Positions 45,355 through 47,153 of a stretch of 64,000 bases of DNA are shown here, piece after piece (within the stretch, counting starts at the first letter, position 1; the number at the start of each line of letters is the position of its first letter). The stretch lies in sequence record PQ438391.1. One strand, 5' to 3'. This DNA is from Escherichia phage vB_Eco_T-01. The notes beneath the pieces are model-generated. The model saw nothing but the letters and a program-made list of their open reading frames with translations, ran no database searches and was not told where the DNA came from. The translations under genes and the position numbers were made by a program.

Positions 45355-45963
45355 ATGAAAATGCAAAGTGATTTCAATTCAATGTTTGAAGAGTTCCAAA
45401 GACAAGTTGATGTTCCAGACCAATTATTAAATGCTCTTAAACGTATGGCAGAAGGGCGTAATTATTATTGGGGTTCTTCATATGAAACTGATGAAAGTCT
45501 TTCTGGAAGATTTTCTAGAGGTAAAAAGTCTTTAATACGTCCTGGAATACTTATTAACAGCATTGAATCAATTCATTTATTAACATGCGATTTTGACGTT
45601 GAATTTACTGATTTTGTTTCTCCTGAATGGACGGTCTGTTATTTAAACGACGATTATGATTATCTCGGCGTTTATAGTTTAAGTGATGCATGGTTTAAAC
45701 GTAATTTACAAAAGTCAAATTTATTCTATATTGATACTACTGTAAAATTTCGGGGCAAGAAATATTTCTTTACTCTTATAGTTGATTCTGAAACTAAGCA
45801 TGAAAATAAGCGTATTCTTAGTAAAAAGAATATCTTAACTATTGTTGATGATCTTTTTGATAAATTCGTAGAAAATCCCAATTTTGAAAGCGATTTATTA
45901 CTAGAAAAATTTGTGAAGGAATGCAGAGAATATGTCAAAGCCATCAATGTATCTTCCAAGTAA
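45355..45963 (+). CDS. hypothetical protein, first member of C-terminal 'FVKECR' family
   Basis: 202 aa; C-terminus 'EKFVKECREYV' shared with next three ORFs. Confidence 0.55.
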   Translation: MKMQSDFNSMFEEFQRQVDVPDQLLNALKRMAEGRNYYWGSSYETDESLSGRFSRGKKSLIRPGILINSIESIHLLTCDFDVEFTDFVSPEWTVCYLNDDYDYLGVYSLSDAWFKRNLQKSNLFYIDTTVKFRGKKYFFTLIVDSETKHENKRILSKKNILTIVDDLFDKFVENPNFESDLLLEKFVKECREYVKAINVSSK

Positions 45964-46324
45964 ACCCTTAAAGTATGAATTAAAGCGTCAGATAATTTCT
46001 ACTGATGTATTAATAGGTCCTGTTATACTCATATCATTTGTAATTCTATTGATTATTGGAGGTGTTTTAGATGTTATGACTGATATTGATTCTGGCGAAA
46101 TACTGGTATTAATGCTAATTCTTCCATTAATAGTTCCACTTTTATTAGTACCTGTAAATTGGGTAGGATACTGGTATCAAGGAAGACATTATCGTAAACG
46201 CGTACGTGATTGGAAAGCACAGTGTGAAAAGATTAAAAAGGAACACCAGCTTAAACTTGCTGCGTATGAATTTGATGAAATTATGAAATTTGTTAAGGAA
46301 TCACGATGCAAAAGCCAAAACTAA
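45932..46324 (+). CDS. small membrane protein (two TM segments)
   Basis: 130 aa; C-terminus 'MKFVKESRCK'; start overlaps upstream ORF. Confidence 0.5.
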   Translation: MSKPSMYLPSKPLKYELKRQIISTDVLIGPVILISFVILLIIGGVLDVMTDIDSGEILVLMLILPLIVPLLLVPVNWVGYWYQGRHYRKRVRDWKAQCEKIKKEHQLKLAAYEFDEIMKFVKESRCKSQN

Positions 46325-46668
46325 ATAAAGTCAAATATTCGCTTTCTGAGTCATTTTTAATTTTTGCTGTGGCGTTGGCTGCAGCTCTTGCGGGTAGTCT
46401 TTTTGGATTGTTAATTGACTGTCTTATTTTAAACATTGACGGCACAGTAAATATAATAGAAGTTTGGAGTGAACTTCACTATACTAAAATTATTTCATTA
46501 TTTTCATTCTTTGGTATCATGTTATATTTTCATTATGATAATTTTAAAATAAATTGGCAAAGAAAAAAAGATTACAAAATACAATTAAAAGAATATAATA
46601 GCTACATGTCTTATATTGAAAAAGAATCAATGGAAGAGTTTGTGAGTGATTGTAGGAAAATTAAATGA
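46306..46668 (+). CDS. small membrane protein (two TM segments)
   Basis: 120 aa; C-terminus 'EEFVSDCRKIK'. Confidence 0.5.
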   Translation: MQKPKLNKVKYSLSESFLIFAVALAAALAGSLFGLLIDCLILNIDGTVNIIEVWSELHYTKIISLFSFFGIMLYFHYDNFKINWQRKKDYKIQLKEYNSYMSYIEKESMEEFVSDCRKIK

Positions 46669-47153
46669 TTTTAAAAACTCGCTGGTATGATTTAGATGAT
46701 GGGGATGATGGCATTCCAGTTGATAGAGTTGACTGGAATGGCTGTTCCGAAGATATGAAAAATTTGTTGATTAGGGAGTTTAGAATGGGATATCAAGCAG
46801 CTAAGCCATCTATTATAACAGATGATAAATTCGTGTGTATTCATAATGGTCGCGCTAAGTTAACGAACGCTGATTGGTTCACAGATAAGATTATGATTCT
46901 GTGGTATATTATTAGTTTTCCTGTGACATCATTCGTATTTTACTTTTTTATAAAAAATCCAATGGACAGAATAGGAGATTGGATTATTTTAACCATACTT
47001 GTTAATATTTTTACAGCAGCAATATTATCTGGGATATGGTACACGTTCATTGAAATGCCATGGCGTTTACGTAGGCAGCAAAAGATTTTTGATGAAAAGA
47101 AATATACTCAAAATTTAAATAATTTTATCACCGAATGCAGGAAATTAAAATGA
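46665..47153 (+). CDS. membrane protein with N-terminal soluble domain
   Basis: 162 aa; C-terminus 'NNFITECRKLK'; ATGA coupling to nudE. Confidence 0.5.
   Translation: MILKTRWYDLDDGDDGIPVDRVDWNGCSEDMKNLLIREFRMGYQAAKPSIITDDKFVCIHNGRAKLTNADWFTDKIMILWYIISFPVTSFVFYFFIKNPMDRIGDWIILTILVNIFTAAILSGIWYTFIEMPWRLRRQQKIFDEKKYTQNLNNFITECRKLK

Follow-up and report, generated by a model that had tools for sequence, protein, structure and literature searches.

A C-terminal tail shared by the overlapping e.5, e.4, e.3, and e.2 genes of T4-type phages, encoded beside e.6, a predicted PspA/Vipp1 homologue

In the bacterial Psp and Lia systems, a small protein anchors or regulates a PspA polymer at the membrane (PMC9239133, PMC11237479). 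Specifically, LiaH, a homologue of PspA, is anchored to the membrane by LiaI (PMC9239133), and pspA has neighbours that code for the small membrane partners PspB, PspC, PspM, and LiaI-LiaF-TM (PMC11237479). Phage-encoded homologues are left untreated in two comparative studies of Psp systems. Here, we describe a locus of Escherichia phage vB_Eco_T-01 (PQ438391.1), analysed within a stretch of 64,000 nt (the window), in which the genes e.5, e.4, e.3, and e.2 (45355-47153) code for proteins with a common C-terminal tail and lie next to e.6, a predicted homologue of PspA. The arrangement resembles LiaH-LiaI of Bacillus, PspA-PspB/PspC of Enterobacteria, and PspA-PspM of Mycobacterium, in that small inner-membrane proteins whose ends lie in the cytoplasm are encoded after a gene of the PspA/IM30 type, and the tail-bearing proteins may be the phage counterpart of the bacterial anchors. 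It differs from Psp and Lia in being encoded by a lytic phage, in having no regulator such as PspF or LiaRS, and in that several putative phage partners, including soluble ones, share a short C-terminal helix motif that is undescribed for Psp systems. Moreover, e.4, e.3, and e.2 have no Pfam or NCBIfam match to PspB, PspC, PspM, or LiaI-LiaF-TM.

The four open reading frames (ORFs) are the genes annotated as e.5, e.4, e.3, and e.2 in RB27 and T4, where nudE (e.1) and the lysozyme gene e follow. On the + strand, e.5 (45355..45963) codes for a soluble protein of 202 aa, and e.4 (45932..46324, 130 aa), e.3 (46306..46668, 120 aa), and e.2 (46665..47153, 162 aa) code for predicted membrane proteins. 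The original prediction had described four overlapping ORFs with a shared tail, and the ORF calls and overlaps agree with it, the tails being exactly as quoted. All four proteins bear F-(V/I)-x-(E/D)-(C/S)-R near the C-terminus, within the tails KFVKECREYV... (e.5), KFVKESRCKSQN (e.4), EFVSDCRKIK (e.3), and NFITECRKLK (e.2). The motif reads FVKECR in e.5 (45910..45927, F186-R191), where 11 further residues (192-202) come after it, FVKESR in e.4 (46289..46306), FVSDCR in e.3 (46639..46656), and FITECR in e.2 (47124..47141), all on the + strand.

The pattern F[IV]x[ED][CS]R is absent from every other ORF of at least 40 aa on both strands of the 64-kb window. Similarly, over 1-50 kb and 113-163 kb of T4 no other ORF C-terminus carries it, the one further match (FINDSR) lying within the ORF at 41805-42113; the chance expectation is ~3e-6 per site. 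A position-specific scoring matrix (PSSM) built from related tails gives 18-25 bits to e.5, e.4, e.3, and e.2 versus 9.8 bits to the best of 452 other ORFs. A chance origin of the shared motif is excluded. The tail pattern consists of a hydrophobic residue at -3, F/Y/W at position 0, I/V at +1, C or a small residue at +4, and R at +5, and the L/M(-3), F, I/V, and C positions fall within a 100 degree arc of one helix face. A weak AlphaFold2 (AF2) model of e.5, made from a single sequence (pLDDT 38.8), has residues 180-196 helical. A narrow test in IMG/VR, with the exact DNA pattern for FIKECRK-stop, gave eight matches, four in T4-like phages and four by chance inside unrelated ORFs, and thus no sign of the tail outside T4-like phages.

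With e.6 as the anchor, and with the e.6 family alignment split into two sub-alignments for the search, loci spanning 98% to 25% e.6 identity were retrieved. A C-terminal [FYW]-[IV]-x-x-C-R-[KRG] recurs on many ORFs adjoining e.6 in Mosigvirus (JS09, RB69 type), Gaprivervirus VR25, Dhaka-like phages, Klebsiella and Kosakonia-type phages, Morganella MP1, and Proteus phiP4-3. In the Ackermannviridae (Ag3, SKML-39, pSal-SNUABM-02), the e.6 homologue is followed by small membrane proteins with the ending I-[IV]-x-x-A-R-[GSR]-R, in which Ala replaces Cys and the spacing is unchanged. A general pattern, [FYWI][IV]xx[CA]R within the last 28 aa, is present on 2-7 of the ~25 ORFs around e.6 in 15/16 loci, among them those of Morganella MP1, Proteus phiP4-3, and Ag3-like Ackermannviridae, against a background of 1/452 ORFs. 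The one background ORF is the thymidine kinase gene (54149-54730), whose product ends in …EIYVSLCRKHWNELTKKLG with YVSLCRK; it was set aside as a chance resemblance, and its C-terminus also has a CxC pair (CHC). The bodies that carry the tail are of four or more types, namely e.5-like soluble proteins, 2TM proteins (two transmembrane segments), an N-domain plus 2TM (e.2), 4TM proteins, and soluble proteins of ~95-100 aa. Small membrane proteins adjoining and co-oriented with the pspA-family gene are found in the window and in 15/16 related loci. As judged from these comparisons, the motif is shown to be specific to this locus and to occur on several unrelated bodies beside e.6 homologues, across the Straboviridae and, in altered form, the Ackermannviridae.

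The e.6 homologue of RB43 (L047, 4860-5447) lies near nrdD/nrdG and not near e; stop codons break up its 5' half, and the annotation covers the C-terminal 98 aa only. EKFIHSCKK stands near the end of ORF268 (206 aa), the large ORF that comes next. As a separate observation, Mosigvirus, Gaprivervirus, and remoter relatives have an insert between e.3 and e.2 that is not in the window (L003 4231-5025; gp142-gp139 in VR25, L007; ~8560-10340 in L021-L026). It holds three to six paralogous small soluble ORFs of the RB69ORF139c/137c/136c family, which share the ending W-(V/I)-S-S-S-x-x-C-stop, with small variations, and adjoin conserved proteins of 318 aa and 228 aa.

The constant neighbour, e.6 (44720..45313, + strand), codes for a protein of 197 aa that is known in public records as “uncharacterized 22 kDa protein” or “host specificity protein”, with no public source naming PspA or Vipp1. 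The gene is found in 1106 phage records, including Ackermannviridae, and a phmmer search of 1.84 billion representative proteins delimits a compact family of ~200 aa. The window e.6 itself is below the Pfam gathering threshold and has no match to PF04012 (PspA_IM30) at E up to 1; 5/28 family members match this profile. Specifically, two proteins of the Ackermannviridae type, P0225 (39.0 bits) and P0219 (35.1 bits), exceed the PF04012 gathering cut-off of 33.9 over residues 6-146, and, in the phmmer search of 1.84 billion proteins, they match the window e.6 at E=1.7e-7 and 5e-10, respectively. The e.6 family profile, searched against PDB sequences, has Vipp1/PspA as all of its top eight matches (E=8e-5), colinear from 1-140 to 1-141. 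The AF2 model of e.6 (pLDDT 74, and >90 over residues 30-130) is a helical hairpin (2-80/86-145), for which the top 10 Foldseek matches are likewise all Vipp1/PspA. By these intermediates, the profile, and the model, e.6 is a predicted PspA/IM30/Vipp1 homologue of the ESCRT-III superfamily and the conserved head of the module; in bacteria, PspA/Vipp1 attaches to the inner membrane and repairs it. The C-terminus of e.6 (…EYINSLK) was considered as a tail of the same class and rejected, the PSSM median of 27 e.6 homologues (-4.9) being inseparable from background (95th percentile 1.0).

Hydropathy places two TM segments in each of e.4, e.3, and e.2 and none in e.5, in agreement with the original prediction that the last three are two-TM membrane proteins. 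The predicted segments are at ~aa 26-46 and 57-77 in e.4 and at ~aa 17-42 and 61-76 in e.3, where the second is the weakest of all, while e.2 has a putative N-terminal cytoplasmic domain (~1-76) followed by TM segments at ~77-96 and 106-129 and the tail. Since the loops of e.4 and e.3 hold no K/R and the N- and C-terminal segments hold 4-14, the positive-inside rule predicts an N-in/C-in topology for e.4, e.3, and e.2, with the tails in the cytoplasm.

Alignment of the four proteins upheld the common tail and a relationship of e.4 to e.3, but not a full paralogy of all four. The hhalign comparison of e.4 with e.3 gives P=89% and E=2e-6 over the 40 columns that span TM2 through the tail; moreover, e.3 has a weak full-length match to phrog_2604, the family of e.4 (E=0.004), both proteins start with M-(S/Q)-K-P, and the junctions upstream of the two genes resemble each other in nucleotide sequence. 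Hence, e.4 and e.3 are probably tandem paralogues. The e.3-e.2, e.5-e.3, and e.5-e.2 comparisons align the tail only (E=2.6e-5 to 3e-4), and e.4-e.2 and e.5-e.4 give no significant hhalign alignment. Reversed-sequence controls reach E=7e-4 through TM composition, and a common descent of all four bodies is not claimed, as e.2 and e.5 align at the tail only.

The whole is best explained, albeit tentatively, by tails that work as docking helices and tie the e.5, e.4, e.3, and e.2 proteins to the phage PspA (e.6) at the inner membrane. Each of the four proteins would expose to the cytoplasm a C-terminal amphipathic helix, conserved on one face, and through this helix all four would dock onto a common partner, for which the e.6 polymer is the most plausible candidate. 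Accordingly arranged, e.4, e.3, and e.2 could hold the phage PspA at the inner membrane or regulate it there, in the manner of LiaI, the anchor of LiaH, and of PspB/PspC, which bind PspA, and the soluble e.5 could join the same e.6 hub. The likely purpose would be to keep the membrane of the infected cell energised until lysis. A more far-reaching formulation, which we regard as doubtful, is that T4-type and Vi1-type phages own a Psp-like membrane-maintenance machine, made of an e.6 polymer and changeable membrane and soluble adaptors under the helix code [FYWI]-[IV]-x-x-[CA]-R, and that these adaptors evolve by in-frame cassette shuffling at the same ~25-nt element of docking, translation, and recombination.

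Short terminal docking peptides are familiar from the tails of gp43, gp33, and gp55 that bind the T4 clamp (gp45) and from the MIM helices of ESCRT-III proteins. The tails described here are similar to them in that different proteins carry copies of a short terminal helix or peptide for binding to one hub; they differ in the sequence motif and in being encoded in tandem, and the e.6 hub is a candidate.

The tails could instead bind to each other, so that four helices bundle e.5 and the three membrane proteins into an inner-membrane complex with a job unrelated to e.6. The hydrophobic spacing of the tail (-3, 0/+1, +4) is heptad-like and typical of helix bundles, the carriers would be co-translated from overlapping cistrons in a way that favours co-assembly, and the tails within a genome tend to one variant (all Y in Proteus phiP4-3; all I..A-R in Ackermannviridae). 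However, there are 2-7 tail genes per genome and single members are freely lost, which fits a hub with its ligands better than a fixed stoichiometry, and the constant neighbour e.6 is left unexplained; we consider this tail-tail binding unlikely.

Alternatively, the four proteins may be membrane-acting accessory factors, employed in superinfection exclusion, anti-defence, or host takeover, with a tail that binds a host protein and an adjacency to e.6 that reflects operon history. As for T4 Imm and Sp, which are also small early envelope-acting proteins dispensable in the laboratory, the genes are early and laboratory-dispensable; e.2 is broken in T4, and PHROGs places e.2 in the category “moron, auxiliary metabolic gene and host takeover”. 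Among Tequatrovirus sequences of e.4 (91) and e.3 (37), the variability is focused on TM1, the periplasmic loop, and TM2 (46007-46162 and 46354-46533 in the window), with a 4-aa indel in the e.3 loop, while the cytoplasmic N- and C-terminal parts of both proteins are nearly invariant, which is a pattern seen in proteins that face variable outside partners. Conversely, the sequence searches return no similarity of the four proteins to Imm, Sp, or any PADLOC or Pfam family, and superinfection exclusion, which the original prediction had put forward, thus finds no support. The genes also differ from imm and sp in having no sequence relation to them (PHROGs, Pfam) and in being encoded elsewhere in the genome, and Imm and Sp have no such tail. 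Moreover, the host target would have to be conserved across Escherichia, Morganella, Proteus, Klebsiella, and Aeromonas hosts, which is possible, and this explanation gives no reason for soluble tail carriers. We judge it to be distinctly improbable. The membrane remodelling that the original prediction had proposed beside exclusion receives indirect support from the adjoining e.6, as a putative PspA/Vipp1 homologue.

Selection on the tail is visible in its codons. Among 85 distinct nucleotide versions, F is written as TTT/TTC, I as ATT/ATC/ATA, C as TGT/TGC, and R with all six codons (AGA, AGG, CGT, CGA, CGC, CGG). Despite this turnover, F, I/V, C, and R are retained in six or more phage genera, and the proteins at the e.5 position in six genera, with 15-48% identity, have only M1, N98, F186, C190, and R191 as invariant columns. 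As the residues persist while the codons change, the tail motif is shown, from these comparisons, to be selected at the protein level. At the same time, each of the four tails holds a hexamer resembling a Shine-Dalgarno (SD) site 5-10 nt ahead of the next ATG. In e.5, the K-E codons AAGGAA (45916-45921) would be the SD of e.4 (ATG 45932); in e.4, AAGGAA (46295-46300) would be that of e.3, whose ATG (46306) lies within the R-C codons; in e.3 and e.2, AGGAAA in the R-K codons (46654-46659) and at 47139-47144 would serve e.2 and nudE, respectively. Across the phages, the SD of the next gene takes variable positions, at +2/+3 (K-E AAGGAA, E-E GAGGAA, K-G AAAGGA) or +5/+6 (R-K AGGAAA). Lys(+2) is AAG in 10/15 SD contexts versus 0/17 non-SD contexts (one-sided Fisher p ~5e-5), with a genome share of AAG of 25%, and AGA plus AGG make up 54% of the tail Arg codons versus 23% genome-wide. 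Given that this Lys is AAG only where it serves as SD, and that the SD shifts in position, the dual-coding idea holds at the level of these codons: the tail would carry a protein motif and the ribosome-binding site of the next gene. The suggestion that the tail is selected at both the RNA and the protein level is therefore sustained, and the similarity of the four tails goes beyond the SD-encoded residues, the conserved positions being mostly outside the SD.

It is highly improbable that the motif has no protein function and arises as a side effect of the signals for ribosome binding and coupling that serve the next gene, spread and homogenised by recombination between the junctions: SD hexamers are in every tail, purine-rich Arg/Lys codons are enriched, the junction pairs J1/J2 and J3/J4 are alike in nucleotides, and junction crossovers occur, but F (TTY), I/V, and C (TGY) are unable to form an SD, the four conserved residues stay while the SD shifts between its two positions, Arg persists through AGR-to-CGN changes, each of which takes two substitutions, the motif survives at junctions with the next start 40-56 nt off or with no overlap of the next gene, and the junction RNAs have no conserved structure, so that a pure by-product of RNA and recombination is largely refuted by the codon data. 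For the four junction RNAs of the window, no significant structure was found (z = 1.3, 0.2, -2.0, 1.3).

The third use of the tails is in recombination. In L008, e.2 is precisely lost and e.3, now overlapping nudE, ends in a hybrid tail, EFVIDCRKLK, with the crossover in the TG[TC]AGGAAA common to the e.3 and e.2 tails. In the Dhaka-like L015 and L017, e.4 is precisely lost through a crossover between the SD-spacer-ATG elements of the e.5-tail/e.4-start and e.4-tail/e.3-start junctions. In UFV05 and UFV11, an in-register fusion of e.4(1-31) to e.2(88-162) has formed at a CCTGT microhomology in TM1. As read from these junctions, the tails (20-30 nt) are shown to be short homologies by which recombination has precisely removed whole genes. 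The gene e.2 is present in 537 phage records versus 646 for e.5. In reference T4 (L002, NC_000866, 67472-67960), e.2 is frameshifted into a 102-aa ORF and an ORF of ~51-63 aa in a separate frame, and the second still encodes the part from TM2 to the tail (…NNFITECRKLK); the e.2 of the window is intact. Separately, the metagenomic P0217 joins the first 45 residues of a Gaprivervirus-type e.6 to the last 40 of a gp133-like protein (…VSRNTDRVKNITNEIRVNAQVYLEFPMEGW), which suggests a natural deletion across most of e.6 and everything down to gp133.

The tails are comparable to the PeSL (promoter-early stem-loop) cassettes that mediate modular shuffling in the hyperplastic regions of T4-type phages (PMC2839356, PMC4122927), where short conserved sequences at gene borders are the homologies for gain, loss, or replacement of small ORFs. 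They differ from PeSL in that the joint is inside the coding sequence and comprises the tail, the next SD, and the start codon, so that reading frames and the stop/start overlap are preserved. The four junctions, with their unstructured RNAs, have no PeSL-style pair of promoter and stem-loop.

The window is a Tequatrovirus, and its region 45355-47153 has 98.8% nucleotide identity to Shigella phage Phaginator and at least 90% identity to 504 phage records. The gene order tRNA/rnaC,D - e.8 - e.7 - e.6 - e.5 - e.4 - e.3 - e.2 - nudE - e is the same in the window, RB27, and T4; the older T4 entry L13089 names e.6 msp3 and e.5 to e.2 msp4-msp7. PHROGs profiles match end to end, with phrog_2607 for e.5 (E=1e-108), phrog_2604 for e.4 (2e-70), phrog_2330 for e.3 (1e-59), and phrog_2203 for e.2 (2e-78), and precomputed Pfam matches to PF26873 (e.4) and PF26896 (e.2) are present on all close homologues. 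Pfam, NCBIfam, PADLOC, and PDB-sequence searches made with e.5, e.4, e.3, and e.2 gave nothing meaningful. Several NCBI/RefSeq records label e.4 and e.3 “sulfurtransferase”; the label was rejected, as neither Pfam nor NCBIfam has a rhodanese or sulfurtransferase domain there, and looks like a propagated annotation error. One record labels e.3 “DNA primase”.

From e.5 to nudE, the stop/start overlaps are 32, 19, 4 (ATGA, 46665-46668), and 4 nt (ATGA, 47150-47153), from which the e.5-e.4-e.3-e.2-nudE chain is probably translated in a coupled manner. The last cistron of this chain, the Nudix hydrolase gene nudE (47150..47590, + strand; PF00293, E=1e-13), starts at 47150, which is annotated and SD-supported, and not at the in-frame ATG further upstream (47135), which lies within the tail of e.2 (MQEIK-MKTL…). 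Upstream, a sigma-70-like promoter with an extended -10 element (44664..44692, + strand, TTTACA-17-TATTAT) coincides with the -35/-10 signals that L13089 annotates before msp3, and is, by its sequence, the likely start of an early e.6-nudE transcript. The gap between e.6 and e.5 has no convincing promoter and no terminator consensus on the + strand. It holds a perfect GC-rich hairpin with a UUCG tetraloop (45319..45334, AGGGGCUUCGGCCCCU), a putative stem-loop in L13089, which has no T-run on the + strand; judged by its sequence, it is terminator-like on the - strand only and no canonical terminator for the early transcript. Because a promoter-like site precedes e.6 and no + strand terminator precedes e.5, e.6 through nudE are probably one early transcription unit. 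Further downstream, one 98-aa ORF (48097-48393) separates the lysozyme gene e from denV in the window, at a place where T4 has ipIII and ipII and RB27 has ip4; this internal-protein slot varies among close relatives.

The genes e.5 to e.2 are already known, uncharacterised T4 genes, and the motif reaches far beyond the four proteins and the genus. In the literature searched, within the coverage of one library, there is no relevant paper on e.2-e.5 or on a T4 or phage PspA; to our knowledge, the shared, family-crossing tail, the three uses to which it is put, and the link between it and a phage homologue of PspA are undescribed. Although T4 serves as the reference among lytic phages, e.2-e.6 have gone without a function for decades. 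If e.6 is a PspA/Vipp1 protein and the tail proteins are its partners, a virus would carry its own version of the host “phage shock” membrane-repair system. This would offer a tractable system, with a defined peptide motif, for membrane energisation after DNA injection, in superinfection, and in lysis inhibition, and the recruitment of bacterial ESCRT-III polymers to membranes would become testable. Whatever their function, the tails are a natural case of the triple use of a short sequence, as protein motif, Shine-Dalgarno site, and recombination joint, and this triple use may be the reason why members can join or leave arrays of tiny overlapping phage genes while translation stays intact.

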